Assembly: GCA_905178155.1 (NCBI GenBank)
Contig: CAJINV010000002.1
Location: 9,988,650-10,052,649, forward strand
Length of the DNA: 64,000 nt
Reading direction: 5' to 3'
Source: Amoebophrya sp. A120
Taxonomy: Eukaryota; Protista; Dinoflagellata
A program made the translations under genes and the position numbers. The stretch's first letter is position 1, and each line of letters begins with the position of its first letter. Positions 6,501-64,000 of this stretch are shown piece by piece. The notes beneath the pieces were generated by a model, which made no database searches, had not been told where the DNA came from, and saw only the letters and a list, made by a program, of their open reading frames with translations.

Positions 6501-9500
6501 TCCTGCTGCAGAATCTCCATCTGGACGAAGCAGCCCGGGAGCTCTTCCTCGTAGCTCTTTTGCATCAGGTCCGAGTTTGCGTTCAGAGAAACTGTTTCGA
6601 TGCTCAGGTTGAGCAACTTCCGCGGCGTCACGGTGATATTCAACGCTCGTTTCATCCTCTTTTCGTTCAAAGTTGCATTGGTCTTCGAGAACTGCTCCAA
6701 CCCAAACCCCAACTTTGACTCCAACGCGTAAGGGGGCTGCTTCGCCTCCTCCGGGTTCGTCAGCGTCAGGTTTTTTGACGTTGATGAACCCAAGCCAAGA
6801 ACGCTGCTGCTTGCACTAACATTCGATGTTGAAATGAGCTGGTCCAGCTCTTGCACACTCATCCTCGCCTCGCCTAAAAGCAAGGGCTCGTTTGTCTTCT
6901 CGTCGCGGTAGTAATCGTCGAAAACTTGAAACAGGATTTCTTCCAGCTCTTCCTTTTCTGCGGGCTTCGGAAACAGCAGTTCTTGCTCCCACTTGATCAG
7001 ATCGTTCGCCCGGTCCACCATTCTCGCGTTCGCGGCACTCGGACGGAAACTGTTGGTGGTCGTATTGGAACGGGCAACACTGCTTTGGCTTCGACTGCTG
7101 TACGCGAGCAAGTTCTTTACCGAAGGTATGACGTTGGTCTGAAACGACTCGAACATCTCTACATCCGTGCGCCCAAAGCTCTTCAGGCTCTCCTTCGATC
7201 TCGACCGCCTCTGCTTCCCTACGGCAGCCGCGTGCTTGTCCGCGGACTTGAAGGACTCGGCCGTCTTTTCCGCAAATTTCACGTGCAGCTCCTCAGGCTC
7301 TTCCTCCTTCAGCTTCTTCAAAATCGTCACCCGCACAAAGGGGTGCAGGTCCATGTCCGGCGTCATCGGTTTCAGGAAGTTGCTAGCGTGGTTGATCTGG
7401 ATGGACAGCCCGACATTCTGGACGCTGGTGGAAGTTGTAGAGCTTTGTTCCTGGTGCACTTGCTCAATTGTTGTTCCAGTCGCACTGCTGTCAACAGCGG
7501 GAACAGCAGCTTCCACAGGACCAGACACGACTCCCTCCTCCGCTTCTGTTGCGCTAATTTCCGGGATGACTTCCTCGCTTCTCAAGGCCCGCTCCATCTT
7601 CTCCATCTGTAGCTGCGCGGAGACGAGCCGCTCCAATCTTGTCGACACCCGACACAGCTGCTTCGTGTCCTCCCGCAACTGCCGCTCTTGCAGCCTTGTC
7701 GCAGAAGTAGAAACACCAGAATGACCCAACGACTTTTCCTCCTCCACCGCTGCGTCTGTCGCCAAACCGTTTCCGAAGATCGACCGTGCGCCCTCACCGC
7801 GCGGCGAAAGGTGGTTGGTCTGCAGGGCCCAGTGCTTTTCCAGGAACGACCGCTGGGCGTGCACCACGTGCGCCACCCACTTCTGCGCGCCCCCGAGCTT
7901 CACCTTCTCCACGAACAGCCGCTGCTTGTGCTCGTCCCACGCGTAGCGCTTCTGCGCCACCGAAGCGCCGCCGGCCTCGTCCACGACCTGCGCAGACAGG
8001 TCCCCGGTGAGCAGGAAGGGTTTGTTCCGCAAAACCGACACCACCGTGCTGGTGACCACGTCCGTGACCACGGGCGCCGGGTCCGTGTCAATGTGGTTCA
8101 ACAGTCCCTTCAACCGGGCCTCCGAGCACACGTGGCCGTAGTGGTGGTAGCTGTGGTGCGAGATCGGGGGGAGCCGGTAGTCCTTGCACAGCACGATGTT
8201 GGTATCGTCCTCTTTTGGGTCCTATCAAATGCAAAAATGTCTGGGTCTGGAAGGTTGGAACTTGTGATGCTAACTTTGAACTCTAAAAAAATCTGCATTG
8301 CATGACCAGCAAGAGGAGTCTAGTTTGTGCTACGCGGGGAGGGCGTTTGTCATGCGGAGTAGGCATCAGGAAGCCTGCTAAAAATCTGTGATGCTAGGTC
8401 GTGCATTACAGACATCCTGGGTCAAGTCTCAGAATCTTCCAGACCCAGACATTTTTACATCTGATAGGTCCTCCGGGGTCCACAGCTTGTACCTCGCGAC
8501 CGCAATCGGATCGTTCCAGTCGATGTCGATCTCGAAATTCCGGTACATCGTGGAGGAAAACAGACTGTTCGTGTTCTCCAGGGACGACACGTGCGTGGGC
8601 GGGTACTTGTACTTCGCCTCCTTGTCCTCGCGCGTGTAGAAGATCGACCCCTGGTCATCGGAGGAGGAGGAAGAGGAGGAATTCGTTCCCCCGAGACTGG
8701 TCCCTTGTCCTCTTTTTCTCTTTTCTTTCAGAAGTTGCTTCTGCTTTAATCGCTCCTTCCTCGGGACCAATCGTGAAATTTTCCAGGCGATGCTCTCCTG
8801 CACTGGCGTGTCCTCCACTTTCGCTAGGTCGCAGTAGTGCACGATGGAATTGTAGTCCTTGGCCACCTGGAAGTCCAGCCCCCGGATCCAGATGGCCTTG
8901 TGCCGCTCCTGGAACCGGATCGGCTGCGTGCGACTGGCGTTGATCAGTGGGTGCAAGAGCAGTGGGGAGTGGACCTTGGGGTTCTTCGGGATGAATTCGT
9001 TCAAAATGTTCGCGGTTTTATCTCCGAACGCCTCGGCAATCCGCTTGTCCTCGGCGGACATCTTTTTCTTGCGCTTCAGTTGGTTTTCGTACCGCTTCTT
9101 CTCGATCTTCTCCTCGTACTCGTGCTTAAAGAGGAACTTCATGCGGTCCTTGAACCGCCTGACATTCCCCTCCGAGTTTTTCTGCCAGGGGTACACCCCA
9201 CGGGGTCCGATGATGGCGTTGGTCTCCATACGGCCGCCACCGGACACGGAGTGCGCCTTGCGCCGCAGCCGCTTCTCCCGCTGCACGTAATGCGCGATGC
9301 GCTCGCGCGAAAAGGGCTTCTTACCGGTAGCGGAAATGATCGTGATTTTCGGCGCCGCGGAATTCTTGCCGGGCGTAGCAGTTGCTCGTACACCACCAAC
9401 GGGCACCGAGGCCGTCAGCGGACTGACGCGATTCTGATTATTCCTCGCCAGCTGCTGCTGTGAAGGTTGTTGTTGATTACTAGACCCAGTAGTTCCACTG

Positions 9501-9796
9501 CTGCCCACGCCAGGTGGGCCGGCAGCTGGTCTGTCTACGTCTATTTCGATCACCTCCTTGCCCCCGTCCAGGTTCACAGTCGGGTTCGAATCAACCTCGG
9601 CGTGGCTGCCCTCCTTTTCGGCCGCCTCGGCCACGTTGTACTCCTTGACCAGCTCGGCGGTGCCGAGCGTCTCCTCGTCCAACGGTGGTAACTCGGCGGA
9701 CACGTCGGTGAGTGGCGGGGCGGCATTCGCCTTCTCCGCCGACGCGGCCTCTGCTGCTAGTCTGGCCCTCTCCTGCTCTGCTTGCATCAGCTTCAT
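518..9796 (-). CDS. Large multi-C2-domain protein (about 3000 aa); possibly the C-terminal part of a longer gene starting at 13894
   Basis: ORFs 8429..9802 and 518..8194 join in frame (LWTPED-PKEDDTNIVLCKDY) after removing element 8223-8466 plus one GGTCC. Several C2-like motifs, e.g. LQLFVERADEIYEPDFAALDKCNPWIKINVG and LTIEVKRAQNIYPENFIGTADPFVRVLFRDQVFETKIV. Confidence 0.8.
8223..8466. mobile_element. Family A TIR introner/MITE, 244 bp, TSD GGTCC
   Basis: TIR TATCAAATGCAAAAATGTCTGGGTCTGGAAG / CTTCCAGACCCAGACATTTTTACATCTGATA. GGTCC at 8218-8222 and 8467-8471. Confidence 0.95.
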
Positions 9797-9952
9797 GGCC
9801 AACTTGGAACCTGTGAGTGTTGAGAAAGAATTTTTTTCAGTTGTGACCTCTGGATGAATTTTGCTAGTTTTGTTTCATGCAACGGACGGCAATGCTCAGT
9901 CTGAAACGTTCGACAAAAAACACAAAGCTCAAATGCACAGTGTAAAATCACA

Positions 9953-12900
9953 TTATAAAGTACTTTTGTCTTTCAAATGCGGCGCCAGTGCCTTCTGCGC
10001 GATGACGGCCTCCATCTCCATTGTGTATTGCGCGTCGAGCTCGACTTCCGTGGCGATGACTCCCTTGTTCTTCAGCTTTTCCTTCTTTGATTTCGCGGAC
10101 TTGGTCTCCACGAGCGGCTTTAAATGCAGCGTACCGGCCTCATCCCGTAACGGGTCCCAGCCCATGGCGTGGAAGAAACTCCGCTTCTTGTAAAGATGCG
10201 ACCGGACCTTCTGCGTCACCTGATGCCTCTTCCGGTACGCGCGGATGATGCGGTGGGGCTGTCGCTCCATGATACGGTCCTCCTCATCCAGCGCTTTCCG
10301 CACGTAGTACTTCGTGACGAAGGGCGTCAGCATGTTCCGCTGCTTCGACATGTCGTCCGGCACGGAGAGCGTCCGCTCCATCTTGTTCACCCACCCGAAG
10401 CCCCTCTCAATCTCGTGCGCCGTCACCGCCTTCTTCACGTCTTTCAACACCTTCTTCCCCCGTTGCGACAGCGCGTAGTGCAGATGCCGGCGGTCCCCTT
10501 CCGTCTTGCTCCCGTCCTCGTCGTCCGCACGCATTCCGGAGATGCGGCCGTCGGACCGCTTCAGCAGATTGCTCATCAAAATCCCCGCTTTTCGGACGGA
10601 CAACACCTGGTTGGGGTGCGGCTCCAGCCCGATTTCCTGCTCGGCCAGCATCGCGGAGCTGCTCCGCCGGGTCAGCAGGCGCCGCCGGTCCAGTTTCGAG
10701 TCCTTCTTCGTCAGCAGGCGGCCCGCCTTCTTTTTCTTCTTCTCGATCTTCCCGCGGTCCTCATCCACCTCCCCACCGTCCTCCTCGCGCACCAACGGCT
10801 GGGGGTCGTAGCCCCGCCACTTATTGCCGTCGAAGAAGAAGTTTTTCAGAATCAGCAGCTTCGCCGCGAAGATCTCCTTCGTTTTCTCGAGCTCCGCCTC
10901 GCGCTTCAGCCGGATCGCCTCTTTGCGCTCGAATTCCGCGTACTCAATGTTCGCTTCCAGCACCTCGCGGTCCTTGATAAATTTCCGGACCGCCTCCTCC
11001 TTCGACAAACCGCCCTGTTCCGCGGCGCGCTCCTCGGTCGATCCGGCCTTCCGCTTCGCCAACATGATGTCCGGATTGAAGGGAATCAGCTTCGCATGTT
11101 TGAACACTGGTTGAAACGCCGATATGCCGCTGCTCTTGCCCTCGCCGTCCCGCGCGTCGCCGCCGAATAACAAGGCCTGCAGCTCCCCGGACCGGCAGGA
11201 CGAGTAGATCTGGTACGCGATTAGCACGCCGAGGAAGGCGCCGCCACCGAGCATGAAACTCGACGTGCCCCCCTCCTCCCCGGCGTCCGCTTTGCCGGTG
11301 ACGCGAAACTGCGGGTCGCTCGTCGCCCACTCGTAGGGGACGCCGCGCAGCTCGTACACCGCCACGACGTCCCCCTGGTCCGTCTTGTCCTTCAGCCGGA
11401 AGCCCTGGGACTTTTGGTATAGCAAGCAGTTCATGCTGGTCACCTGCCGCAACTCCGTCTCCACGCTGCCCGGCGCCACCGGCACGGTGGTGAACGACTG
11501 GTACTCGAAGCCCTCGGGCCGCTCGCGGAAGTAGCTGAGTCCGTGGTCGATCGCGGCTTTGCGGCAGTCCTGGTAGGACGACGCGTCCACGACGAGGATC
11601 TCCTTGTAGCGGTCCACCAACATATCGTCGTTCCGGAAAAACTTAGTGTCGTTGCAATTCGAAATGTCGAAGGTGATCGTCAAATCCTCCGGGTTGCACG
11701 TCATGAACAGGTCCCCGTCGAAGTCCGGGTGCACGTCCTGGCACTTCAGCGAGTCGTCGGAGATCGACTCGTGGGGCACCAAAAAGGGGCGCACCGTGGT
11801 CGCGTTGCGCAGAATCGGGTTCCCGTCCAGGTTGATCATCGACTGCTGTGGCGCCATATCAAATGTAAAAATGTCTGGGTCTGGAAGAATGCAACTTGTG
11901 ATGCTGCATTTGGATTCCAAAAAAATCTGTGTTGCATGAGTACCAAAGGGAATGCAATTTTTGCCACGCTGAGAAGGCATTTGTCATGCGGAAAAGGCAT
12001 CGCGAAGCTCTCAAAAAATATGTGATGCTAGGGCATGCATCACAGACATCAGGACTCATGCAAAAAGTGCATGGCAAGTGTCAGAATCTTCCAGGAGACC
12101 CAGACATTTTTACAGTTGATATGCCAGCTGGTCGCCGCGGACCAGGGTCCGGCACACCTCGGGCACCGGGTTCACCACCATTGGCGAACAGTAGTCGAAC
12201 CGCAACAGCGGGTCCACCGTGAAGCACCAAATGCTGTTACTGCCGCCCTTGTCCGCCTGCCCCTGGTTGCGTCCGTCCGGGTTGCGGCAGTAGTTCTGGT
12301 CCAAGGGCAAGTCCACCAGCAGCCCCCCGGGGTAAAACACGTCCGGGTTGTAGTTGGTGACGCCGAAATCGGACGGGGCGTTCGGCGACCGCGTGGTCAC
12401 GCCAAACGTTTCGGGCGCCTTCGTGGTCGACGCGTCGATGGCATTCTGTCGGTTGATCAACTCCTGCTGGACGTAGGGATTCTCCTCGTTGAACCCCCGG
12501 TCATCCAACAACGGCGTCGTCGCGTCCGCGGTCAGTGTGGAGAAGGGGTGTAGGTGCGGGATGATCTCCTCCCAGGTCTGACACCGGAGCCCGGTCGTGG
12601 TGGTGTACGCACACCCCACGTAGTTGTCGTACGTGAACTCCTCATTGCACTGCCGCGTGCTCCACAATTTGTTCAAAAACACGAACCCGTGCGTCTCGTT
12701 GTACTCCAGCAAGTTCGGCATGCGGTTGAACCGCAAATTGTGCCGCAGTGCGATGTTCACATCCACCAACGCGTGCATCGTGCGGTTGTTCAGATCTCGT
12801 AAAAACTTTTGCTCCTCCGCTGCGGACCCGAACGGGCTGGGCAAGTACAGCATTGCGCGGGTTCGGTTGTACTCGCAGGAGGAGATCTGCAGCCCGTACG

Positions 12901-15028: not shown

Positions 15029-17492
15029 CTAAATCGACCACAGTTCCGACGCGTGCGCGTGCGGATTGAACGCATAATTAATCGGCCTCGCACCTCCCCC
15101 GCGAGTCCCTCCACACACACCCGTGCCGGAATTATTGCTTACATCCCGCCCTGCGCTCTTCCGATTTCCGCGCGCCGTGAGAATTTTGCAGGCGCCGTTC
15201 CGAAGCGATTCGTCCACCGCGTGCTCCTCCTCCCGGTACACCCACTCCAGGTCCGCCTGCGCCATGGGAATGGCCGCCACCAGGCCTTCGTTGCGGCACA
15301 AAGGGCAGGGGTAGGGGTTGCACAGCGCGCGCACACCCGAAAAATTCTCCCGTCCAAGGAAAAACCGGAGCCGAGACCGGATGTCTTTTTCCAAACAGGA
15401 GATGTGGAACGAGTGCTGACAATGCGGCAACGTGAGGATGTCGTTGGATTTCGTTCTTTCAGTGCTCCCCCTGCTGTCGCAGAGACAGCGGGGCCGGTTG
15501 TAGTTTTCGTTTTCACGATTGATGCCTTGTGCTTCTAGTTCTCCTTCTTCCTCCTCTGCCATGTTCGAGGACGAATCTACTGCATGGGAAAGCACGATCG
15601 CGTCCGGATTCTCGGCATCAACCTTCCAGAGCACCAAACATTCGCTGGTGCAATCGTAGCCGTCGTCCTCCTCGTTTTCCATTACAGAAGTATCACTGCC
15701 CGTACGTGGTCTTGAAGACTGGGTAAAGGGAAAGGATCGCACACTTGCGGGGGAATTCGCCGATGACGCCGGCGACGATGGCGCGGTGGTGCTACTGCTC
15801 GAGGAAGACGTGGACCGAGAGAAAAAGCTTGTACCTGCTGACAAAGCTGCACTACTAGTAGTACTTCTACTTCCCGGAGTCGTAGCTCCGCCGAAAGACA
15901 TGAGCTTTCGCTTCACCGCAGAGGAGCAGCCTGGGAGCGTTTCATAGCAATCGGCGACGTCGTCCTTGTTTTTTCCGTTGTACTTGAACACCAGCGGCTG
16001 CGAAAAGGCGGAGTCGGGGAATCCTCGAGGCAAAGGCTCGCGAAGCAACCTGACTGGAAGTTTCTGCTCGATGTGGTCCTTCGATTTTCCACTTTTCATT
16101 TTCTTGCCTCTTTTCCAAAGTCCGTTCCTGGGCCACATACAGGCAGGTGGAGGAGCGACGTGGTCATCATCATCGATTGGGGATGCTCTACCAGTACTTC
16201 CGCTTGCACCAGCGTCGGCTGATGGTGACCGTGAGTCAGACTCTCTTACAGTTTCTCTTTCGTCGGGAATAGAGACGACTTCCGCCAGGAATTGCTCGAA
16301 CGACGATTCAGTAGCGCGATGAACTGTTACAGCACTGTCAGAAGGAGCGCCTGGAACATTCTCATCAGCAGTTCCCACGATACCCTCCTGTGACGTGCCA
16401 GAATTTAAAGCTGTCCTCGCATTTCCACGTTCCTCCTGCCGCTCTCGATTCCTTCCTCCCGACGAAGCAGCAGCTCTCCCACCAGTCCGATCCGCCGATA
16501 GACACAACTGCAACAGAAAGCGGCCGACGCTTGCAATGTCAGAGTCGGAGCACGACTTTTTGGTCGCGGAGGAGCCTTTCTTCGCAGGGACAACCTTTCC
16601 ATTCTGCGTCAACGGCTCCAGGCAGATGGCGCATTCCAGCGGTTCGTCAGGCTCTGGCTTCCTTGCCTTTCCAGTAGGTGTGGTTGCACTCGCACCTTGT
16701 CTGGATGCGGATTTTTCATTCTGTGTTGTGCGAAAAAATAGCCCGAGGGAAGATGAAGAGGAATCTGAAAGCTCCGCGTCTTGCCCCTCGCGGTCTGCTG
16801 GTACCGAAACGCCTCCGGGAAATTGGTCGAGATCAACTCGTCCATATCCTGTGCAAAAGTATCGTACTCGTATAAATGCAAGTCTTGCATTACAAATCCT
16901 TCTCGTAAGGCAAATCCGCATTACAAATTTTATTTCTCATGCTGAGGGAATTTGTAATGCATTTATACGAGTACGATACTTTTGCAGTTCATAGTCCACC
17001 TGTTTCAACAATTTCTCCGCGCAGTGTTCGGGAGCTAGATGGGGGTATCAAATGTAAAAATGTCTGGGTCTGGAAAGTTGGAACTTGTGATGCTAACTTT
17101 GAACTCTAAAAAAATCTGTATTGCATGACCAGCAAGAGGAGCCACGTTTGTGCTACACGAGGAGGGCATTTGTCATGTGGAAATGGCATCAGGAAGCTTT
17201 CCAAAAATCTGTGATACTGGGTCATGCGTTACAAGCATCATGGGTCATGCCAGACAAGCATGACAAGCCTTCCACTCTTCCAGACCCAGACACTTTTACA
17301 TTTGATAGGGGGAGTGATTGTGCGAGTCGAGGAAAGACGCAGAGACAAGGCAAGAGCGCTACTTCTCAGCAGCAACTCATGCTGTGAAGACAAAAGAAGC
17401 ACGATAATCTGGCATGCGGACGCGATGACATTTTTGTAGCCTTCGCAGTACCGAATTGGAAAACCTGCTGCCCTCGGCCGCCGCTGCGCCAT
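15029..17492 (-). CDS. RING-H2-type zinc-finger protein (putative E3 ligase), 3 exons; start uncertain
   Basis: Frame is continuous (ITPP-SSSRTLRGEIVETGG-RVDLDQF) after removing elements 17046-17307 and 16845-16993, each with one TSD copy. Motifs CAICLEPL and LPHCQHSFHISC...CPLCR. Confidence 0.7.
16845..16993. mobile_element. Family B introner, 149 bp, TSD GTCCA
   Basis: TIR TATCCTGTGCAAAAGTATCGTACTCGTATAAATGCA versus right-end reverse complement TATGAACTGCAAAAGTATCGTACTCGTATAAATGCA. GTCCA at 16840-16844 and 16994-16998. Confidence 0.93.
17046..17307. mobile_element. Family A introner, 262 bp, TSD GGGGG
   Basis: Family A TIRs. GGGGG at 17041-17045 and 17308-17312. Confidence 0.93.
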
Positions 17493-20460: not shown

Positions 20461-20723
20461 TATCAACTGCAAATATGTCTGGGTCTGGAAGGGTGTGAAC
20501 TTGTGACGCTGCAGCTGGATTCTACAAAAATCTGTATTGCATGAACAGCACAAGAGGTCCAGTTTTTTCCATTGCGAGAGGGCATTTCTCATGCGGTATA
20601 GGCATCAGAAAGCCCTCACAAAATCTGTGATGCTAGGGCATGCATCACAGACATGAGGACTCATGCAAAATGTGCATGACAAACCTTGCACCCTTCGAGA
20701 CCCAGGCACTTTTGCACTTGATA
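20461..20723. mobile_element. Family A element, 263 bp, TSD CCAGA; no host CDS identified
   Basis: Family A TIRs. CCAGA at 20456-20460 and 20724-20728. Confidence 0.92.
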
Positions 20724-34139: not shown

Positions 34140-34332
34140 CGACGGGAATGGTCACATGAAGACCAATTGTGTACGTCAAGTGCTGTCCCTGTCGCACAGG
34201 AATTTTCCTTTTTCTAGTTCTAGTAAATTATAGTGGTTCCAGTTTTCGAGTTTTACAACATTACTAAACGAGCTACAATCTGAAAACTTAGTACTACACA
34301 AATGATAAAACGAACTACATGGAAGAAAACAC

Positions 34333-34528
34333 TTCTTTGCTTTCCAGGGGTTCGAACTGACAAGAAGAGAGAACTTCTTTTCTTTGCAGGGGTTCGAACT
34401 GACAAGAAGAAAGAACTTCTTTGCTTTCCAGGGGTTCGAACTGACAAGAAGAGAGAACTTCTTTTCTTTCCAGGAGTTCGAACTGACAAGAAAAGACAAA
34501 TTCTCTTCCTTCCCGGGGGTTCGAACTG
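34333..34528. repeat. 42-bp tandem repeat, about 4.5 copies
   Basis: Unit approximately CTTCTTTGCTTTCCAGGGGTTCGAACTGACAAGAAGAGAGAA. Confidence 0.9.
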
Positions 34529-49768: not shown

Positions 49769-51786
49769 CCCGCCGGAGCAGCGCTTCTAAATCATCAATG
49801 TCTCTTCCGATTTCTACGGCAACACGACTGGGGATGAAAACGAAGCGATGAGAAAGGAACCAAAGGTATAGAATCAATCCAACAGGTGCGCGCCAGTAGG
49901 TGCCCGCACTACATGCGAATTATGAAACACCTTTCGGCGCACTTGACAGACATCGACTAACTCCATCACAGCCTGTCCAGTCATATTGTTCATTGAGCGA
50001 TCTCCCCCAAAAAAAAAACCGCGTGTGATGCAGTGCTTATCCGAGTATCAAACCCCTTCGAAAGATGAACTACAGCGGATCTTCATCTTCTCGCAACTTC
50101 TGCGGACAATTAAATGTCACTACACCTTCTCACAAGTCTATGCGCTGAAGCTCAAATGCCTTTAACACTGCATAGACCTGCGTGAGACCTCGCCCACGTG
50201 GGGTTCCAAGCCGGGTCCCCCGTTCTGCCCCTACGCAGTGCTTCTTTTTCTCACAGTTGTCACATTTTGTTTTTGTTTATGAAATCTTTTGTACTCGGTT
50301 TCTATTGCTTTCGATCTGGATCCAGGCCATACTTCAAAAGCCACCCTTCCCTCCAGGTTTGCATGAAGCCGTGCTTGCTCATGCAGGAGAAGCGGAAATT
50401 TCCCCGGCTGTACCCATTGTGGATGTCGCGGAGGTGCAGCCGATTCCTCCCGTATCCTATGTAGAAACGGCCCCACCACAGAGTTGTCGCGCGAATCTGG
50501 CGCATGCCTGAAATCTTTCTCTACTACGCAGCCCCACTAGGACCACATTCTACCGCTATCTCGGAGCTTGTCGCGCTGGAGTAAGGATCAGGGACTCAAT
50601 TTGTAGCGATGCAGTTGCACGACCTAGGTGAAGGTGAACAGGACTACGCTACGAGATCAAACTTTTTGTCATGCATACGCGACTGCACCACATCAAAAAC
50701 CTTTGCACCGTCGCCGCAAGCCGCTTCGGACGCAGGAGGATCTAGGGTCAGAACCGCGAGAAAAACATCGCGCAACAGCCAAAGCTGCGCCTGCTGGTTT
50801 TTCTAGTAAAATTTGGCATTCTGGGGTGGGGACGTTTATACACAGGATATCCCGACGTGCTTGTTTTCCAGAATGCGGCCTTTCACCCCGAGCGTCTCGA
50901 AAACCGCCTTGTACACCCGCCCGTTCACTTCGTTTTGCAGGAACGCCTTCCTCGCATCCCCGTCCTTGTTCATTCGGCGACAGTAGGAGGGGAACCCCAG
51001 TGGGGTCTGTTGCATGTACGGCCCCGGATTACGCGACGACATTGTGGGCAGTGCAAATGGTCCGCGAACAAAAATGTACAGATGAGTTTTATACCCTTGT
51101 ATGCATTGAATTGCCGCGAGCACAGAGAGGGACGCAGTCGCTCTTCTTGTTCAAACGAGCACTTTGATTATGGTTTCCATAGTGTTGTGAATGTGAAAGA
51201 AAACATGGTTGGACGGTGCTCCCGAGAAGAAAAATTCCCAACTCAACACCGCATGTTGACACCTTCGAACAAGCGTTTCATTTTGGCTTCTGCCGGTTGC
51301 TTCCTTAACGACTTACCCGAGAACAACAGGCACCTCTTCAGTGCTGATGCGGTCGGAACGCGCGAACCACTGCGCAATTGCCGGGCGTTGTTCCGCCATG
51401 CCCCGGACTGCATGGTGACGAACGATGTTGTTTCTACTCACTTATGCCAAAATTCTGCTTTCATTCACTTTGTTCATTTTGAGCGGAGGTCGCATAAATA
51501 TTATAACTCGTTATCGAAATGCTGTACGCAGCGCAGTCGCGGATGTGAATCGGAGCCGGTGAGTCCGTGGAAAGAAGGTCGCTGGGCGGCGGATTGTGAT
51601 ACGAAATAAGGTTATCCTCAATTTTGATATTTTGCTACTCAGCGGTAAGACCACGACAAGAGTTCTATTCTCATCGTCAGCAAGGCTCAACATCTTGTTT
51701 TCGTGGCGACGATGTTTGTGCGAATGACCTCTGTGGCGTGCTCGATCATAGCCGATAATTCGTGGACATCAACACTGTAGTGGCCG

Positions 51787-51931
51787 TATCCTGTGCAAAA
51801 GTATCGCGCTCGTATTGCAGTCATGCATTACAAATCTTTCTCTTAAGATAAATCAGCATTACATATTTTATCTCTCATGCTGAGGAAATTTGTAATGCAT
51901 TTATACGAGTACGACACTTTTGCAGTTCATA
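51787..51931. mobile_element. Family B element, 145 bp, TSD GGCCG
   Basis: Closely similar to 16845-16993. GGCCG at 51782-51786 and 51932-51936. One minus frame stays open across the repaired site (CEGWTG-HYSVDVHEL). Confidence 0.92.
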
Positions 51932-52515: not shown

Positions 52516-55500
52516 CTACTGGTCGTCTTGTCGCCTGCCGGCCATCGTAGGCCGCTTCGTGTTGAGCCGGAAAAACATCGAAGAATTTTTTCTTCTGTGC
52601 GCTAAACCCTCGCTCTTCTCACGCCGCGGGCAGGGGAGCCGCGGGTGGATTTTCGAGCATCGCACTCGCTGGGTCGCGCTTCGCGTACATGACTTCCAGA
52701 TCCGCCCACAGCGTTTTTCTTCTTTCCTTCTTCCCCATCTCCTCCTCCAGCGATGCGCGATTGTTGGCGCTACACTCGTCAAACAGCGGGGGATCCGCTT
52801 CCATCAGCAGCTTCAGCACGTTGAATGTGAGCCCGTGGACCTTTTATTGATAATTTCCTCTATATCTCATATTCAACCAACAACAAATCGTGGCTGTCTG
52901 TTCTTACGGAGACCAGCACCTACAAGGAATCGCATCCACGCGCAGCCACCTGTATGGAATGGAATCGCTGCGCGATTGGGAATGCAAAGAGAAAAACACC
53001 GTCTAGGAAAATACGACATGACCCTCGCCAGGACATGGAAACAAGCGCGAAATAAGATACCGCCGAGTTCCAGTGGTGCTTCGAGGTGTTATACAGCGCA
53101 CCGAGCACGATGGGAAAGAGTTCTTTTCTGTTGGAATTGATCAGCTTCACTATGTAGTCGTTGTTCCACAAAAACAAACTTCGCTCCGCCACCTGGAAAT
53201 GCGGGCAGTCGATACCTGTTGTTTTTCTTTCCGCTGATCGTACATGCAAATAAACCTATGTGCTGTCGTCGAAGCTAGTGCCAACACCATCTCACAAGGG
53301 GCTGCTCCTCCACTGAGAGTAGAACTACGCAACTGATTGTCAAGAACAGGTCGTTGTGTACAACGATTATGCAGGTAAAATCGAAAATGTGTACATAATG
53401 CAACGCGCTTGAAGAGCTGCTTTTGGATGGCGACGAACTCTGGTGGCTGCACGAGTTCCATATCAAATGCAAAAGTGTCTGGGTCTGGAAACTTGTAATG
53501 CTGCATTGGGAATAGAAGTGAATGCTTTGTAATGCACAGACAAGCATGCGAAATATCTGCGCTGCCTTGTGTTGCGTTTTCCGCACAACAAACTGCGTTT
53601 TTGCATGACAGGGAAAAGGTTCTTTTCTTGAACACGCATCACAAGCTTTTCAGCCATGCCGGACAAGCATGACAAACCTTCAGTTCTTCCAGACCCAGAC
53701 ATTTTTGCATTTGATATTCCAAGATCTCCTCCAATTCGTTCAGATAGAGTATCTGCTTGCTCGTCAGGCTCACTGGCCAGAACTTCAGCATGGAAATCAC
53801 AATGTCAATCGCCAACTTGGGATCCTTCTCCACAAACTGCGTCATACCTGTGTTGAGTCCAAATAGCATGAGCGAAGCAGTGTAGGATGCAGCGAGGAGC
53901 GCCAAGTACGGAAGAAGGAAAACACCAATCAAGCATCTACTTCTAGTTATTCTTGTTAGTTTCGCGAAACAAAAAAACGTCAACAACTGCAACCAGTATC
54001 AGTGTCTTACAGTAACTCAATTGCTGGTGGAAGCTCGCCAGGGACTTGACACTCTATGCACCCAAAAAATTTGCATCCTTTAATATCAGTTTGCCTATAC
54101 TGTATTTGCAGCATATTGCAACAAGCAGCTTTCAAAAAAAACTTCTCCAAACGGAGGACCACATGACATCGATTACAAGCGCTCTCCACTTCATCTTTTG
54201 GTGCCTAACCGTTCTATCGCGTGTTTTAATGCAAGCTGATAAGGATGTTGTTCCCGGTAGTTTTGGTCAGTTTCGTACTTTGTGCAGTGGTATCAGTGCG
54301 CGCACGAGAAAGTCCTTGTGCTCGTCCTTCAGTGGCAAGGCAAACCCGTTGATGATTGACCCGAGAATTTCCAGTAGCTCTCCGACGCCGTTGTGCATTT
54401 CTGACTCGTATATCACCTTGAAAAAGACGTGCTGTATCGCCCTTCGGATAAAGCTGCGCAGCGCCATAAACTTCCCGTATCTGAGTATGTATGTGAAAAG
54501 GAGAATGAAAATTATTTCATTTCTTTGTGGTCTGTACCTGCGCCTGGCAGATTTCTTTTTTTTTCCTTTTTCTACCACAACGAAAAGAACTTGACAAAAG
54601 GAAAAAAAACATACACTCTGTGCAGGATAGTTTTCAGGTAGTCCCGCTCTCGGCAGTCCTCGGAGTCAAACAGCTCCAGCAGTTTCAGCACGAAGTTTGC
54701 GTCGATAAATCGTTTTGCTATTTTGGGGTCGACGTCGTTGGAAACCACAAATCGGAGAAAAAACTCGTAAACCTGATTGCGCGTTATTCATGTTCTCGTA
54801 GATCACCTATCTAATCAGCACTTTGTGATGCAAAGAGATCGCCGTGATGAGATAGAAGTACAGGTAGTAGCAACTCCCAACCGGGGCTGGCGGTAGTAAA
54901 TATCATTCCATGTCATGACTTCAAAACCTTCCTGTAGTTTTCCCATTCATTGATTCGTCAAGTAGAATCCATGACAATTTTGTGTAGTAAAGATTGTACG
55001 ATTTGCAGGTGTGGCCATGCGGAATCAAGCTGCGGCTCGTCGTCCTCAGGGTCGTAGATTCGCATAATTGTTCTGTTGTTTCCTATCGACTGCAAAAACT
55101 TTGCCCCCAAATGTGTACTATTCGGATTCCTACAATTGGCTCAATCTTTGTCCGAGGGGAGACCGAAGACTCGCAACCTCTGCGATTATGCTAATTTACA
55201 AACAACATGCAACTCACATGCCAAAAGGTGGTACATTTGATTTTATTCGTCGTTCTTGTGTTCCTGCTATTCCATTCCAAAAGGATGGCCATCGCGATGC
55301 AATAGAGGGACAGCGACAAGGTTGCAGTCGATACTCGCCGGAAGTGATCTGAAAATGTTGGCGGCCACCATGTTGACGACGTCCTCCATTATGCTCTCCG
55401 TGAAGCAATTTCGGGTGTTGTTTATGTATTCCACGATTTCGAGAAGTGCTTGTCGCTTTGCTTCTTTTTCCGTTGGATTTGCCTCACTGTGGAAGTCGAA

Positions 55501-55872
55501 TACCGCCGCGCTGCAGGCTGCTAGTTTTCGGCGGAACAGCTCCCCTCGCTCGGACACTGGCGTTTCCCGCAGTGTTGGCAACGACCCGAAAAGAGTGCCG
55601 GGATCTGTTTGAAGGATAATCGAGACTTTTTACTCGTAATAACGGAGAGGTGGACAAGAGGATTTTATATGCACTGCACTGCCTTCTTCACAATGCATCG
55701 AAGAAAGAGATTCCACGTCCGCATGGGGTTGTGGTCTTTCCAAGAGAAAAATCGAAATCTATCTGTCAGATATTCTACCTCCTGACGCGGGCCTTGAGGC
55801 TCCGGGTTTTGCGGTCGCTTTGCCGACATCTTTTCTGCTTGGGGGTGCCCGCTTGCCCTCCTCGTTCCCCAT
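52516..55872 (-). CDS. Protein phosphatase 2A regulatory subunit B' (B56 family), multi-exon; start uncertain
   Basis: [18 protein letters not shown]; YEFFLRFV; [22 protein letters not shown]; [23 protein letters not shown]; LNELEEILE; [10 protein letters not shown]; HWN. Canonical introns (e.g. 53216-53394, 52841-53060, 53848-54010) plus one introner. Confidence 0.95.
53461..53716. mobile_element. Family A introner, 256 bp, TSD TTCCA
   Basis: TTCCA at 53456-53460 and 53717-53721. Removal restores B56 [16 protein letters not shown]. Confidence 0.95.
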
Positions 55873-57623
55873 CCGTCGCTTGATATCCCACAGAAAAAAA
55901 CTGGCAGGTCATATTTGTAATGCAAAAATAACTAGAAAAAAAAATTTGTATTGCATATCCGAAACAGCATGCTATGAGGCCGCCCATGACAGATCTTTCT
56001 GTGTATTTATTTTTGCATTACAAATATGCCGGGCCAGCTTTTTTCTGTGGGATACTTGACTGTCTGTATCAACTTCATCTTCCCGGGGTCTTGCTTTCGA
56101 ACCTTCCCGATGGAATGAACAAAAGTTCTTTGCGTGTGGTACTTAGGGTCGTGATGAAGTGATGCCACCCAACAACTTGCCGCTCGTATAAGGAGAGAAA
56201 AAGTTACGCAGTCTAAAAACGGATTCTTCTTATGGTTCCCCGTGCTGGTCCTCTACTTCCCGATCGATCTACTCTTACTGGATAGTAGTAGACAATTTTC
56301 CACCTCCGAAGTGCTGCTTCTTTTCGAGAAGTCCTGCTGGTAACTTCTCACTTCTACTGCTTTCCACAAACGAGGAGAGAAGGAGCGGCTTCGTCTCGAC
56401 CGCACATGGGGACGGACAAGCCATCGTATGCGTCGGAGGTCTCAGCAACAGTTGACCGGCATCCTGTTTCGAACCACGTCCTCTCCTGCACGGGCGCCGC
56501 CATTTCAGAGGTTACCAAGACATCAAGCCGATATCGATCAGTGCGAGGGCAGCAGCTTCTAATAGCGATTTTTTGGTGTGCGCAACGTTAAAAAAATTGG
56601 GGGGACGGAATTTTTACAGCACTTTAGATAGTAGCAGTTCTACCTTGCGAACAATCGTTTTTACAATGCGCGGAGGAGAATTGAGAACCCTATTCCTCGT
56701 CGCAGAAACTATATCACTAGCGGTCAACACAACTTCAAGTGAAAATCAAGATTCCCAAATAATTCTTGTGTGCCGTGTAGTAAATTTTCTCCTCGGAAAT
56801 CACAGCTCTGCAAGACGACAGGGTAGTACTCAACACACATGAAATTCAAAATCCTAATTTGTACAGCAACTAATTAAGTTGAAGACCCTGTAGCGCGATG
56901 GGCAACTGTAGAGAAAAATGTCTTGCCATGCTTCGGACTTGTAGTTATAGATGATATTCTATCTGCACTTCTTAGAGCCGCTGTGATGTGGTCGCAGTCA
57001 CAACATTAGTGAAGACTGCCGATCAGTGGTGTCTTCTCAGTTGTGATGAAAAAACACTCATTCCTGGTTTGTTATGTCTACTATTTCACATACTTACTAC
57101 TCCTTCCTCGTCCATCGTTTTCGTGCGTGCATTGATGTTGTGAAAGTGTTCAAGTCTACCAGAATTCGATTTCGAATTCGTTGCACTCTCGTGCATGATT
57201 GGCATCAAAACTACATGCTGCGCTACCACTAGAGGTGCGGCAACAGTTTCTTTCTGGGTTCTCTTCAAAAAAAAGGATCGAATCATTTTTCTACTACACT
57301 CAAGAATTGCACATGCATGCAGAAACAGTGCGGGCGCACTTGTCCTGAACAACCGTGTTGACTCATCTCGCACAATAGGAACACAGCACATCTCAGATCT
57401 AGTACCACTTGCGTGCAAACAAGCGAGGTGCTCTACTCAAATGAATCCTTGCTTTCATACAGCTTGTTCAAATCATTTCATAACAGTCGCTAGAATAAGA
57501 GTTCCGATGATTGTCTGTGCCTCCTGTCGCACTGCTTGCGCGTGAAGAACGGAAATAACGCACCCGATCGCTTCTGACGGTCGATAGCGCGCCGTCGGCA
57601 ACTTGGTCACCTGCCTGTACCAA

Positions 57624-60600
57624 TCAGCTATTGTCAATGGTGTTGATCATGTGCTGCGTGATGATACTGGTTCCCTTCTTTGGGTCTTTCGACACCCGCC
57701 AGTAGCGTTCGCACACCTGTTTCCGCGACAGCATCTGCACGAAGGTTTCGTCGTGCGTGATGATCATGAGCTGGAACCCACTGTGGTCCCGGCGGGTTTC
57801 GATCAAAGAGCCCAGCGCTTCCGCCAGCGCCTCGATGTTTTTCTCGTCCAGATTGGTCGTGGGCTCGTCCAGCGCCAAAATCCCGCACTGACACCCGAAG
57901 GAATCCGCCAGTGCGAGTCGCGTGATCAGACTGGCGAGCACCTTCTGTCCCGCGGAGCACCGGCCCCGCATGTCCAGCTCCGTACCGTTGGCCAGCATCA
58001 TCACGAGGCGGTAGTTGTAGGACCGACTGCCCGCCCCGCCCCGCTTCACCTGCGCAGCTTGTACAGGATTACTATTCGCGACGCCTTCGTTCAGCTGCAA
58101 GGGGTCACTATTCAGGTTGTTTGCCGCAGCTCCCGTCGCGTCCTCGGCGTCGGAGCGGATCTGCACGTACTCGATATCCTTTCCCTTGTAGATTTCCTGC
58201 CACAGGCTCCGCATGGTGAAGTTGATTTCCATCATCTTTTCCTGGTGAAACTTCATCAGAGCCACGTCCAGGCTGTTGAAGTACTTTTGGCAGTCCTGGG
58301 CCGCGGTTTTCACGCTCTGCTCCTCGATGATGGCTTTCCGGTACCGCTCGTCAATGTCCTGGTACAGGCTGGAATCCAAATTGTATCAAAATGAAAAATC
58401 CCCCCTCCCCATATCGCAACGAAGTTTCTGATGCTGGATTTCCGTACACAAATCGCAGCTGTCTTGCAGTACAGGACTGCAGGCGTATGCCAAGCCTCAG
58501 TCGAGAGGTTTTGACGTAGGTGCCTAGCATGGCAAACGTGTATGCTCTAAGCCCAGCAGCATCACAAACGGCCTGCAAAATGCGGGGCGCTCTTTGGACA
58601 TGCCTTCTTGCAAGACAGACAGGATTTGAGGTCACAAATGCGCATCACAAATTTTCAGACGGATGCGTTTTCAATATGGGGAGGGGGGATTTTTCCTTAC
58701 GATAAATTCCTCTGTGCGTCCAGCATCTCCACACCGATCTGGTGCAAGCTTCCCTGGATCTTCCCCCGGTCATTGATCGCCTGCTCGGTTTTCACCTGGA
58801 GTTGCTGCGCCAGCTGGTGCTCGGTCTCTGTCAACTGTTGCATCGCCGTCTTCATACTGCTGGGGGGCGCGTTTTGAAGATTTCCTATTTGTTCACTGGC
58901 AGATGATGAAGACGATGCCTGGTGGTTTTGTTGCCGTAGCTGCTGGAAAATCTGCGCCACGGGCTGCGGCAGGTAGCTGTCACCGAGATTGGCCAAATTG
59001 ATATCATTGTGACCACCACCGGCGACGTTGCTCGAGGACGATGCGGCCGCGGCGTTGCCGCTCCTCACGGGCGTCGGGGAGAAATCTGAGCCGCTAGACG
59101 AGTTATTCGGGTGGAACAAAGCACTATTTTGCTGTTGTTCTTCCATCTTAACCTCCACCTGGTCTGGCGACGACGGAGTCACGGCCGTCCCGGTCGCCGG
59201 AGGATAATTATTTCTGCCGCTATTTCCACTTTCTTGTTCGCGGAGGACATTCCGGCTCCACAGCTCGACCTCCTCGTAGCACTTTCGCAGCTCTCGCCAG
59301 TCGTCGGCGACTTTCAGCTCGTTGCTGTACTTCTCACAATCCGCTTGGGTGCGGTAGAGTTGGAGATTCTTCGCAAGCCAAAACACTTTGGTCTGCAGGT
59401 CGGCCAGGCTGCTCACCACCTCGTCCTTTTGCTGCTGTTTTTCTTTGTAACTCTTTTCCTTTTCGGAGACCGCGAGCTCGGCGCGCTTCAACTCTTCCCG
59501 CACACTCTCCGCGTTCCGGATCTTCTGTTCCAGCTTCTCAATGTCGGTGTTCAGCTCCTGCAGCTTCTGCATCTTGTTCGCCAACTCCGTTTGCTGCCGC
59601 TCCAGAAACTGCACAATCTGCTTCTGCAAGTTCTCGAAGTTCCGGCACTCCAGCTCCACCTGTTTCAGCTGCTCCTGGACCTGCGCGGAAAAGCTGTCCA
59701 GCTGCTGCAGATTGGCGCTCAACGCGACCAACTCCTGCTCCACGTTGGCAACTTGCTTCTGCAGCTCCTCTTTCCGCGTCATCTTCTCCTGCAGCAGCTG
59801 AAACCTGGACTGCAATTCTGTGAGCCGCTGCCGCCGCCGCTGCTCCTCTTCGTTCAGCTGGTTCAGCTGCTGCTGCTTCTGGTCCAGCGTCCGCTCCAGC
59901 TGGTTCGACTGCTCGAACAGGGCGGAGAGCTCCTCCCGCTCTCGCGTCAGCTCGTTCTTTCCGGCCGTTTGCGACGTTCCCGCACTTGTTTGCCCGAGTA
60001 GCGCGGCGGGGTTGCTGATCGACATCTCCTTGTCGCGCAGGTTCCGCTCCGCGTCCCGCAGCTCTTCCTCCATGCGCAGCAGTTGCTGAAAATGCACAAT
60101 AACCGGCTTGAACGAGTTTTGTTCCTCCACCAGCTTCGCGAATTCCGCCTGCAAATTCGTGATGTCGAACTGCTTCTCCTGCACGAGTTTTTGCTTCGCC
60201 GTGTTGTTCTCCTGCTCGGCGCCAAGTTTCTGCTGGCACTCCTGCAGTTCCGCGAACTTCGGTTTCAAATTTTCCATCGCCGCGAGCTCCGCTTCCAACT
60301 CCTTCACTTTGGCTCCTGATTCCGCTCCGCACTTCTTTTCGATCATCTGTCGCAGCTTCGCTACCTGCGCTACCAGGGCTTGCCTTTCCGCCTCGTTGGC
60401 AAAGGGTCGCTTGCACATCTCGCGTATCCTGCGTAACAACGCCCTCACGGGGGAATAAAAATCCAGATGGGGCTTCCGCGCGAAGCAGTCTTTATTAAGC
60501 GAGGGACTTCACCACTTAAGCGAAGCACTTAAGCGAAGCAGTTAAGCGAAGCACTTCAGCGAAGCACTTAAGCGAAGCACTTCAGCGAAGCAGTTAAGCG

Positions 60601-63600
60601 AAGCACTTCAGCGAAGCACTTGAGCGAAGCACTTCAGCGAAGCACTTGAGCGAAGCACTTAGGCGAAGCACTTAGGCGAAGCACTTAGGCGAAGCACTTA
60701 GGCGAAGCACTTAAGCGAAGCACTTAAGCGAAGCACTTAGGCGAAGCGCTGCACTTAAAGCACTATTTAAACGGGGCACTACTTAAGCGGGTCACTACTT
60801 GAGCGGGGCACTACTTAAGCGGGGCACTACTTAAGCGAGGCACCAGTTAAGCGAGGCGCTGCCCCTAAGCGAGGCACTACCTGTGCGAGGCACTAATTAC
60901 GCGAGGCACTACTAATGCGACGCACTACTTATGCGAGGCACTACCCAATCCAGGCACTACTTAAGCTAGGCACTACTTAAGCCAGGCACTACTTAAGCGC
61001 AGCACTACTTAAGCGAGGCACTACTTAAGCGAGGCAGTACTCAATCCAGGCACTATTTAAGCCAGGCACTACTTAAGCGAGGCAGTACTTAAGCGAGGCA
61101 CTACTCAATACAGGCACTACTTAAGCCAGGCACTACTTAAGCCAGGCACTACTTAAGCCAGGCCCTACTTGCGCGAGGCACTACTTAAGCCAGGCACTAC
61201 TTAAGCCAGGCAATACTTGAGCGAGGCACTACTTAAGAAGCGAGGCACTACTTAAGCGAAGCACTACCTGCGCGACGCACTGCATAGGCGAAGCACTACT
61301 TACTTCAGCGAGGCACTACCTTCTCCACCTGAGGTGCGGTACTATTTCAGCACTACCTAAAGCGACGCACGGCTTAGACGAGGGGCTACTTGAGCTCGGA
61401 GCCACTCCGAAACAGTTAAGCGAGGCCCTTCTGCGAAGTACTACTTGAGCAGCGAAAAACTACTTAAGCAAAACGCGTGAGCGAAGCACTAAAGCCTCGC
61501 GAGCAAAATTTGCATGACGAATCAATATGGCATCGAGAGAACGTTGCTCAACGGGATATCGCAGCAATCCTTTTTCAGGGATCTCTCTTCCATCGCGTTG
61601 TACAACTTAGCACCATTCTCGATCAACGCGAAGTTGCTCCTTTGGCCTTCGAGGCGTTCTTTTACGTCGGCCAGCTTCTGCTCAAAATCGGCCAGATCGG
61701 TGAACGCGCTGAGCTCTTGCCTCAGCCTGGCTGCGCCGCTTCCCAGTCTCTCGACCTCCTTGTCGCTGTAGGTTTTTTCCGAGATCCCCTTGTGGTGCTC
61801 CTTTTGCTTCGCGTCCGTTTGGCCTCTCAAAGTCGCGAGCATTTGGTTCCCGTGCTGCTCGATTTTCTGCGCTTGCTGCAGGCACTGCTCCGCGATTGCG
61901 GGAAAGCAGGACGAAGCAGCTCCGGCTGGTAATCCGAACGACGTGCCGGAACTACTGCTGAAGTTGTTCGTGGAGAAATTATTGCTGGATGTCGAGAAGC
62001 CTCCCACATGGCTATTGGTCACCCCTCCGGCAGCCGATCCAGTTGTAGACAGCAGTCCCTCGATGCTGCTTCTCGCCTCGTGTCCGAACCAACTTCCGGG
62101 CGCGAGGCCCGCAATGACGGTCTTTACCTGCACCTTCTTCTCGTCCAGCTCTTTCAGTTTCTCCTGCTTCGCGTTTTGCAGGAACTCCACCTCCATCAAC
62201 AGCTTTGATTGCTCCTCCAAAACCTGGATCCGGTCCTGTTTCTCCTGAAACGAAAATTGCAGGTCGTGCTTCTCCTTCCTCAATTTCGCGACTTCCCTCT
62301 CCAGCTCGTTTTTCCGCGTTTGCGTTTCCGCCCCCGCGGTCTGGGTCTGCTGCTGCACCTTCTGCAATTCGCTCTGCACCTGCTCGTACTCGCGCTGCAC
62401 TTTTTGGTAATTCTGCTGTTCCTGAAACAGCTGCGCCTTCCGCTGCTGCAGCTCGCGCTCCCGCGCGCGTTGCGACTCGCACTGGATCCGCGCATCCTGC
62501 GCTTTCTTGCCGATCCCCTGCACGTTCTGTCTTTTTTGCTCCAGTTCCGCCGCCTGCCCCTTCTGCAGCTGCTGCAACTTCGCGCCGTGCTTCAGGCACA
62601 GCTGCTGCAGCGCGCGCATCGTCTCCCCGTCGTGGTGCTGTAGTTGCACGAGGGTTTGCTGGTTCTTGTTCTGCACCCCCGCGGAGGAGGAGGAGGAGGA
62701 GGCTCCTGCAGATGGTGTAGAAGTAACAGTGTTGTACACCTGTCGCTGCAGAACTTGTTTCATCTTTTGGTCCAACTCCCCCTCCAAAACGGCTTTGAGC
62801 GAGCAACTTTGCACCAAGCTAGCACCGACCTGCGACATCAGTTGCGACGCTTGCGGCTGGCTCCCGAGCATGGCGGCCAAATTCTGTTCGCTGTCCTTCC
62901 CAACAGTCGTCAAAATCTCTCCGCGCCACAGCTCCTCGCGCCGCTCGTTTCGGGTTTTCAGCAAATCGCCCGCGGCGGCGACCTCGCCGATCTCCGAGCG
63001 GAGCTGCTTCACCGTTTGCTGAACCTGCTGAAACTCCTGGTTTGCCAAGTGTTCCTCCTGGTCGAGCTTTTCCTTTTTCTTCCCCAGCTCGGGGATGGTC
63101 GTGTCTGTCAAGTTATCAAATGTAAAAATGTCTGGGTCTGGAAGATTGCCAGGTTTGTCATGCACATTTTGCATGACTCCTGATGTCTGTGATGCCTGTC
63201 CTAGCATCACAGATTTTGTGAGGGCTTCCTGATGCCTATACCGCATGACAAATGCTCTCTCCGTGTAGCAAAACTTGGACTCTCTTTGCTGCTCATGCAA
63301 TACAGATTTTTTTTTAGAATCCAAAATCTGCATGACAAGTTGGATTCTTCCAGACCCAGACATTTTTACAGTTGATACAAGTCTTTGCTTTCTTCCTCCA
63401 GGTCCGTGACGATCTCCCGCGTCGTATCCTGAGCAAAAACGTCCCCACCCCAGAGTCAAGATGGGGAATCCGCTAGGCAAAACCGCCACCTCTGGTTGTT
63501 TCGCATGACAAATTTATCCTCGTAGTGTAATCCTCTTTAGCTAGTTCCGAAGCATCACAGATCTAGCATATCATGCTGATTCTAGCATTACAAATTCCAA

Positions 63601-64000
63601 AACAGGATAGGAAAATGGTTCTTATGGGGCTCCGCATGAGAAACTTTTTTAGCATGCAGATCTGCATGACAACTCTGGTGTGGGGACATTTTTACTCAGG
63701 ATACGTCGTGCGCCCCTCCGGCTCCACGAAGATCTGCTCGCACTTATTACAGTGAAAAATGCTCTCACCCCCAAAGTTGCAAGCATTTGTGATGCGAAGT
63801 TTCCAAATGAAAACTTTTTGTCATGCATGAAAGGACTATGAATCTTTCTGATGTAGAGTCTAGGCGTGTTTCGCATCGCTTGCATGACAAGCACCGCTCT
63901 TGCTGGGATCTTTTGCAATACAAATTATTTTTACTATTCACGATCGGAAATCTGTGATGCTGATACATGCAAGAGGGCGAATGTTTCATTTGGAAAAGTT
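57624..64000 (-). CDS. RAD50: DNA repair protein RAD50 (5' part outside window), interrupted by five TIR elements
   Basis: [46 protein letters not shown], IITHD; long coiled coils; reconstructed zinc hook CEMCKRPF. Confidence 0.95.
58384..58704. mobile_element. Family C-related introner, 321 bp, TSD AATTG/AATTC
   Basis: TIR TATCAAAATGAAAAATCCCCCCTCCCCATAT / ATATGGGGAGGGGGGATTTTTCCTTACGATA. Removing 326 nt gives AQRN-LDSSLYQDIDERYRK. Confidence 0.92.
60425..61558. mobile_element. 1134-bp introner (family D-like ends) filled with minisatellite, TSD TCGCG/TCGCA
   Basis: TATCCTGCGTAACAACG versus right-end reverse complement TATCCCGTTGAGCAACG. Flanks at 60420-60424 and 61559-61563. Confidence 0.85.
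60514..61320. repeat. Two-phase minisatellite: 13/14-bp GCGAAGCACTTAA, then 16-bp GCGAGGCACTACTTAA
   Basis: Visible tandem arrays; the period changes near 60750-60775. Confidence 0.95.
63114..63377. mobile_element. Family A introner, reverse orientation, 264 bp, TSD CAAGT
   Basis: CAAGT at 63109-63113 and 63378-63382. Removal gives EEESKDL-TDTTIPEL. Confidence 0.95.
63425..63703. mobile_element. Family D introner, 279 bp, TSD CGTCG
   Basis: TIR TATCCTGAGCAAAAACGTCCCCACCCCAGAGT / ACTCTGGTGTGGGGACATTTTTACTCAGGATA. CGTCG at 63420-63424 and 63704-63708. Confidence 0.95.
63745..64000. mobile_element. Family C element, opposite orientation to the 43267 copy, cut by the window end
   Basis: Starts TATTACAGTGAAAAATGC. 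Interior matches the reverse complement of 43267-43582. Predicted TSD GCACT. Confidence 0.9.

Follow-up and report, generated by a model that had tools for sequence, protein, structure and literature searches.

The introner elements of Amoebophrya sp. A120 (Dinoflagellata) are the closest described system to the one considered here. In the sections of Farhat et al. 2021 (PMC7789003) on which we draw, more than 60% of the RNA-seq-supported A120 introns are reported as non-canonical. The inverted repeats of the introners begin with TAT, go on with seven variable positions and then have three or more A; the direct repeats measure 3-5 nt, and a supplement legend gives an example with 5-bp direct repeats. 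The same sections report a near-complete spliceosome and no U1 small nuclear RNA (snRNA) found, treat the place of the intron border inside the repeat as unknown or variable and propose a hairpin idea. We analysed a stretch of 64,000 nucleotides from A120 (contig CAJINV010000002.1, positions 9,988,650 to 10,052,649; hereafter the window), in which TAT...ATA elements with terminal inverted repeats (TIRs) and 5-nt direct repeats (target site duplications, TSDs) interrupt genes. The window elements are the published introner elements of A120. Since the organism is A120, and TAT repeats, 5-bp repeats and non-canonical junctions are in print, the core finding is already known and is a rediscovery. 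Beyond Farhat et al. we add a strict 5-nt repeat, a frame test, free orientation, an excess of synonymous repeat mismatches and a candidate register of the cut (1+4, with one base ahead of the hairpin and four beyond it), which is new but thin.

Window elements and their precise removal

A preliminary description, made from the letters of the window, had claimed that removing an element with exactly one TSD copy restores an open frame at twelve sites. At nine of them exactly matching proteins lack the element plus 5 nt: four in RAD50, 53461 in PP2A B56, 16845 and 17046 in a gene with a RING-like domain, and 39176 and 43267 in a gamma-tubulin complex component (GCP) gene. The element plus 5 nt is likewise missing from exactly matching proteins at 38811, 54055, 55084 and 55884, which brings the total to 13 sites. 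The named A120 models come from a transcript-based pipeline; the library protein P0196 carries no name. At 8223, 11857 and 32366 the evidence is frame continuity, and at 8223 removal of the element plus 5 nt leaves an open frame of at least 299 and 298 codons on its two sides.

The host genes are:

52622..56078, minus strand: PP2A B56 (A120 model P0121), six GT-AG introns and four element introns
57627..64000, minus strand: RAD50 (A120 model P0001), runs past the window end
38665..43657, minus strand: gamma-tubulin complex component (library protein P0196), 100% identity over the 1000-aa query
15032..17492, minus strand: gene with a RING-like domain (A120 model P0195)

B56 and the RING gene map exactly onto their A120 models. 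The last RAD50 exon matches an Amoebophrya sp. A120 protein at 100% and the A25 ortholog at 70%, and Pfam places the gamma-tubulin complex component gene in the GCP family, at family level only.

The elements and remnants are:

8223..8466, minus strand: family A element, TAT...ATA, 244 nt, perfect 5-nt repeat, in a long gene with C2 and Kringle domain matches
11857..12121, minus strand: family A element, 265 nt, repeat 4/5 with a synonymous mismatch
16845..16993, minus strand: element of 149 nt in the RING gene, 154 nt removed in model P0195
17046..17307, minus strand: family A element in the RING gene, 267 nt removed in P0195
18074..18342, no strand assigned: family A element, repeat 2/5, flanks without coding signal
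20461..20723, no strand assigned: family A element, perfect repeat, flanks without coding signal
20967..21493, no strand assigned: family A element interrupted internally by an insertion, one of its ends damaged, flanks without coding signal
32366..32627, minus strand: family A element, repeat 4/5 (synonymous), removal of element plus 5 nt joins coding flanks
38811..39014, minus strand: old element at the GCP 3' end, repeat 2/5, 209 nt removed, cut must follow repeat position 4
39176..39451, minus strand: element with TGT at one end in GCP, 281 nt removed
43267..43582, minus strand: element of 316 nt in GCP, 321 nt removed
50453..50849, minus strand: element of 397 nt, perfect repeat, removal of element plus 5 nt joins coding flanks
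51787..51931, minus strand: element of 145 nt, perfect repeat, open frame after removal with a weak coding score
53461..53716, minus strand: element in a conserved B56 helix, 261 nt removed
54055..54277, minus strand: decayed element in B56 without a predicted stem, repeat 2/5, 228 nt removed, cut after repeat position 4
55084..55333, minus strand: old element in B56, repeat 2/5, 255 nt removed, cut limited by the A120 model to before position 3, 4 or 5
55884..56054, minus strand: element of 171 nt at the conserved B56 N-terminus, 176 nt removed
58384..58704, minus strand: element of 321 nt in RAD50, repeat 4/5, position 1 from the upstream copy
60425..61558, minus strand: element of 1134 nt splitting the RAD50 zinc hook, upstream position 1 gives the hook cysteine
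63114..63377, minus strand: family A element in RAD50, orientation opposite to 8223, 11857 and 17046
63425..63703, minus strand: element of 279 nt in RAD50
63745..64000, minus strand: relative of 43267 in RAD50, cut by the window end

For the twelve elements described at the outset every start was right, and their TIRs measure 25-40 nt. The ends are in general TAT...ATA as claimed, except that 39176 starts TGT; the 5-bp TSD is perfect in seven and has one mismatch in the other five (11857, 32366, 39176, 58384 and 60425). Ten further elements or remnants were found at 18074, 20461, 20967, 38811, 50453, 51787, 54055, 55084, 55884 and 63745. A blind scan of the window for a perfect 5-nt direct repeat plus TIR gave 14 candidates, 11 of them with a TAT start, and a scan of the same type on five block shuffles gave 0, 3, 0, 1 and 0. 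The copies form families (blastn among themselves; up to 96% to loci of the related assembly described below), and all their host genes lie on the minus strand. TIRs, a TSD of fixed length that varies between copies, many copies and no coding capacity, all seen here, are the traits of miniature inverted-repeat transposable elements (MITEs), that is, of TIR DNA transposons that are non-autonomous.

The junctions were checked independently at eight sites with homolog profiles built without A120 sequences. The repeat junction outscored every stop-free GT/GC/GA-AG alternative at seven of them, by 3.7-14.2 bits, while at 63425, in a poorly conserved stretch, the profile left the junction undecided. 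The GT/GC...AG ends of a U2-type intron cannot be obtained by sliding the junction in any register (0 of 15 window elements tested), and the nearest cases are the GA-AG at 8223 and the GT-AC at 63425 pointed out before. Ordinary GT-AG introns coexist with the elements, even within B56, where they are six of the ten introns and all six donors start GTA. A family-wide GT(+16)/AG(-18) junction is available in several family A copies but did not rank with the best-scoring alternatives at 53461. The preliminary description is supported in that the elements are removed precisely, together with one copy of the repeat, in that this does not depend on GT-AG, and in linking them to the introners of Amoebophrya.

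Two elements have further peculiarities. Inside the 60425 element, tandem arrays of 13 nt (about 18 copies) and 16 nt (about 34 copies) occupy 60513-61302 and account for the length of this copy. At 38811-39014 the downstream 5-mer recurs 3 nt upstream of the 5' flank of the element, so the original repeat may be displaced; despite this, the removed piece is the element plus 5 nt, and the leucine is kept in homologs.

A larger sample and the position of the cut

We searched one related assembly with the terminal pattern and obtained at least 144 loci (L001-L144); all counts from these loci are among the matches listed. From 280 candidates, 251 were kept and 29 dropped because of internal stems, a length above 520 nt or non-TAT ends. 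The 5-nt repeat is perfect in 204 of the 251 and matches at four of five positions in 32. Repeat lengths of 3, 4, 6, 7 and 8 nt, tried as alternatives, fit only 4, 2, 0, 1 and 1 elements. The profile of 472 ends reads TAT, C/G, four variable bases, G, one base and AAA, with TAT at 470. The frame test relied on a coding model that had been fitted to the window exons and took no account of the repeat; 27 of the 251 had short flanks, 136 of the remaining 224 fell under the coding-score threshold, and 88 of the 224 were usable on both sides. For an open frame one repeat copy had to be kept in 83 of these 88, both in three and neither in two.

GT/GC-AG can be reached in 8 of 141 elements, in any register. 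Read in the mRNA sense, the repeat shows no preference for bases typical of splice sites. Among the 82 of 129 elements assigned to four families, the two orientations with respect to transcription occur 42:40. Together with the frames, this indicates that the insertions are removable whatever their target and direction. A G bias apparent in the window repeats is gone in the 113 perfect repeats of the loci. Insertion phase is uneven (63:35:31 in 129 framed elements), the commonest being phase 0 under the inferred cut, and A/T is enriched at the repeat centre, which may be cause or effect. Within 1.5 kb, a Rab-type GTPase gene (L028:1743-3181) is interrupted by four TAT elements as well as by two GT-AG introns; the ends of one of these elements have diverged and lack the A-run. 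The TIR pattern gave no hits in viral contigs.

Where the two repeat copies differ, the protein reveals which copy is used. The upstream copy is required at position 1 in 58384 and 60425, and at 60425 the homolog profile favours it (59.2 vs 51.5 bits). It is required through position 4 at 54055, where 62 of the 63 B56 motif matches from a set of 73 homologous proteins have K, and at 38811, where the two closest GCP homologs have L. At 55084 the A120 model requires the downstream copy at position 5. A cut between repeat positions 4 and 5 is the only one that fits all five informative window sites, so the intron would reach from the base that precedes TAT to the fourth base beyond ATA and begin N-TA-T. 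Judged from these sequences, it is likely that the cut is fixed at this place. The N-TA start matches the GTA of the six canonical B56 donors, and all nine top A120 motifs in Table S4 of Farhat et al. (PMC7789003), a source covered in part, carry T as the second base. The three old copies with 2/5 repeats (38811, 54055 and 55084) all have G at +1 and thus a GT start at the inferred cut. Pfam matched three of the 27 exon pieces next to non-synonymous mismatches, and PDB alignments stopped short of the junction. In the Rab-like gene (L028:1743-1896) the upstream copy would be needed at position 4 if the small helix residue that we take to be usual there is kept; this site was not counted.

The element at 54055-54277 starts with GT and does not end with AG; a GT-AG version one residue longer is neither in the A120 model nor matched by homologs. 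It is possibly an intermediate between an element and an ordinary intron.

Several observations weigh against a fixed 1+4 cut made by a spliceosome. Eight of the nine Table S4 motifs also fit the mirror register and may reflect the choice of the aligner. Young elements have no G preference at +1 (A33 C30 G32 T18 of 113), element introns do not end in AG, and the predicted donor sits inside the stem. The upper bound of the register comes from one transcript-based model (55084). Of 23 single mismatches between repeat copies, 14 are synonymous, where a share of 0.33-0.37 would be expected with one copy free (p 0.006-0.018 with the medium filter and window sites included; p 0.002-0.24 across filters including double mismatches), which hints that both copies are sometimes read and that the cut is partly floating. 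The structurally similar euglenid introns give circles, which the consulted parts of that literature read as spliceosome-independent.

Of the 18 elements folded, 14 have a terminal stem predicted to pair to its last base with a probability greater than 0.5. At 54055, a further point on the opposing side, no stem is predicted (z -0.69) and the repeat is 2/5, yet the element is removed in register; neither stem nor repeat is therefore strictly required there. The preliminary description had proposed a second excision pathway that needs the TIR stem plus the direct repeat. The data do not establish this; the old copies 38811, 54055 and 55084, with their 2/5 repeats, are removed at the element plus 5 nt. 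Given the donor-like N-TA start that results from the inferred cut, a separate pathway is no likelier than an altered spliceosome.

Possible mechanisms of removal

We consider it about an even chance that the introner elements are cut from RNA by a hairpin-guided, relaxed U2-type spliceosome with 1+4 as the main position. This reading starts from the anatomy, the 5-nt repeat, the restored frames, the free orientation and the lack of splice dinucleotides observed here, and from the RNA-seq-supported junctions, the near-complete spliceosome and the U1 snRNA not found in the consulted sections of Farhat et al. (PMC7789003). From these we infer that a transposase would mobilise the TAT...ATA elements, the stem would draw the two element ends together, the cut would take the 1+4 register, and spliceosomal catalysis would proceed with relaxed first and last bases, the retained T(+2)A(+3) acting like a GTA donor. 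Tunicates, whose non-canonical introns are handled by a modified U2 spliceosome according to the part of that literature covered, are a precedent for a spliceosome adapted to non-canonical ends. After the relaxed spliceosome we rank a nuclease with a ligase, copy-skipping, DNA excision and, last, cryptic GT-AG sites or pseudogenes.

In the nuclease route, which is closest to the second pathway proposed earlier and which we regard as possible but rather doubtful, a structure-specific nuclease would cut the hairpin base and an RNA ligase would join the exons independently of the spliceosome, as proposed for euglenid and diplonemid introns. Strong stems, the occurrence of both orientations and the absence of a base requirement at either end suit it, as do the U1 snRNA not found in A120 (PMC7789003, consulted sections) and the euglenid analogues reportedly released as circles; an asymmetric 1+4 cut would suit a nuclease too. 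However, 54055, without a predicted stem and with a GT start at the inferred cut, is removed in register all the same, the N-TA start matches the GTA donors of the window, the spliceosome proteins are nearly complete in the same source, and the tunicate case shows a modified U2 spliceosome coping with such introns. A hairpin with a short direct repeat is also the geometry expected for slippage. The RNA polymerase could realign on the direct repeat, or ribosomes could bypass the element while template switching of reverse transcriptase makes the cDNA junctions, and a crossover anywhere in the repeat would fit the synonymous excess. We hold this to be improbable: even where the repeat copies agree at only 2/5, the piece removed is precisely the element and 5 nt, window RAD50 holds five elements including one of 1134 nt, and the synonymous mismatches at L009:2183 and L021:1964 alter the first codon base, where one tRNA would not re-pair.

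Programmed DNA excision in the transcribing life stage, similar to ciliate internal eliminated sequences with pointer repeats, is more improbable still. TIR plus target repeat is a transposase substrate, and orientation and target are free, but such a cut would be expected to be blind to gene direction, whereas 38811, 54055, 55084, 58384 and 60425 use the mRNA-upstream copy. This asymmetry of the register suggests, at the level of sequence, a process that follows transcription; as the five informative sites share the minus strand of a single window, they do not tell strand apart from direction. We know of no germline/soma split in Amoebophrya. Farhat et al. (PMC7789003) report, in the sections consulted, that no transposase was found in A120. 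The explanation that the genes use nearby protein-changing GT-AG sites, which the preliminary description had itself named as the counter-case, or that they are pseudogenes, is largely refuted. In-frame GT/GC-AG pairs do lie near all 15 elements tested (10-27 each), and a GT-AG intron adding one residue is possible at 55084 and 54055, but the alternatives score lower at seven of eight sites, and the matched B56 homologs (38 of 38) share with the A120 model a loop of length 8. The exons are stop-free, the models complete, and 83 of 88 frames in the related assembly fit removal with one repeat.

A broader form of the relaxed-spliceosome reading seems to us slightly short of even odds: by the 1+4 cut A120 would remove every TAT...ATA insertion, whichever way it points and whatever its target, with only T(+2)A(+3) kept from the normal donor. 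If so, the transposon end, and not GT-AG, would set the choice of the splice site in an organism where U1 snRNA was not found, and a whole transposon class would be nearly cost-free in coding DNA. The removal chemistry of about 30,000 such A120 introns is still open in the covered sections of Farhat et al. (PMC7789003), and in the literature searched, which leaves out the Farhat figures and part of the supplements, no paper states or resolves the 1+4 register or the cut chemistry. Mismatched repeats are natural markers by which RNA-seq that already exists could show the cut position. A relaxed spliceosome would be told apart from a nuclease-ligase, from polymerase skipping and from DNA excision by the N-TA start and the four-base 3' tail that are predicted here. 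The testable 1+4 register and the mismatched repeats as markers are worth carrying forward.

Surroundings and relation to known systems

Elsewhere in the window, a very long gene on the minus strand (518-13909; open reading frames (ORFs) of 2567, 481, 676 and 599 aa) has C2, Kringle and weak PAN matches. At 1677 aa, the A120 RAD50 compares with about 1300 aa in most homologs, and its coiled coil contains long insertions of low complexity. About 4 kb at 22000-26000 differ from their surroundings by 69% GC and a strong AT skew, and three ORFs scanned there had no Pfam matches. Intergenic tandem arrays lie at 34322-34528 and 35047-35252 (units of 42 nt and 32 nt). An Rfam search of the window gave no hits.

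No transposase was found in the long elements of the related-assembly loci, whose frames were not run against Pfam. Six rows of long perfect-repeat elements (three distinct lengths) have stop-free frames of 85-151 aa. These long elements include L055:2501-3531, L061:3292-4263 and L039:2815-3445, the first with apparently nested copies and no long ORF. The Ginger/TDD superfamily was considered: TDD-4/5 make 5-bp TSDs, and the ends share a T-purine-T triplet with those of Ginger2/TDD, but Ginger ends are TGTNR in the covered part of the source (PMC2836005), whereas the elements described here have TAT, at 470 of 472 ends. Because no transposase was found, we make no Ginger/TDD assignment. In the rows of Gozashti et al. 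2025 consulted (PMC12130899; 21 of 58 for A120), the introner families are mostly classed as TIR DNA, with the superfamily given as unknown.

Compared with the A120 introners as described in the covered sections of Farhat et al. (PMC7789003), the window elements differ in nothing in kind. The organism is the same, the length is about 240 nt, they are mixed with GT-AG introns, and the mechanism was left open there as well. The ends of TAT, about seven bases and at least three A, the direct repeat at the borders and the families all recur. For absence from transcripts at non-GT-AG junctions the indication is indirect, the exactly matching database proteins lacking the elements at 13 sites. Gozashti et al. 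2025 (PMC12130899), as far as covered, describe 58 A120 families, mostly TIR DNA with mixed non-canonical splice sites, which were compared with ours by description and not matched one to one; their automated TSD calls are 2-5 nt, whereas the repeat here is exactly 5 nt in 204 of 251.

The introns of euglenids and diplonemids (PMC11282704, PMC11170887, PMC12621601; sections consulted) likewise have end-pairing stems, flanking repeats, no GT-AG and a proposed MITE origin. They carry CAG/CTG a few bases inside their ends and circles are reported for them, whereas our elements have the TAT...ATA stem, predicted in 14 of 18 and missing at 54055, without the CAG/CTG inner motif. The MITE-type introners of Aureococcus, Micromonas and Symbiodiniaceae (PMC9860276, part consulted) share TIR and TSD and are spliced with one TSD so that the mRNA length is unchanged. 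They carry or co-opt GY/AG, whereas the elements of A120 type reach GT/GC-AG in 8 of 141 cases and show no target bias.

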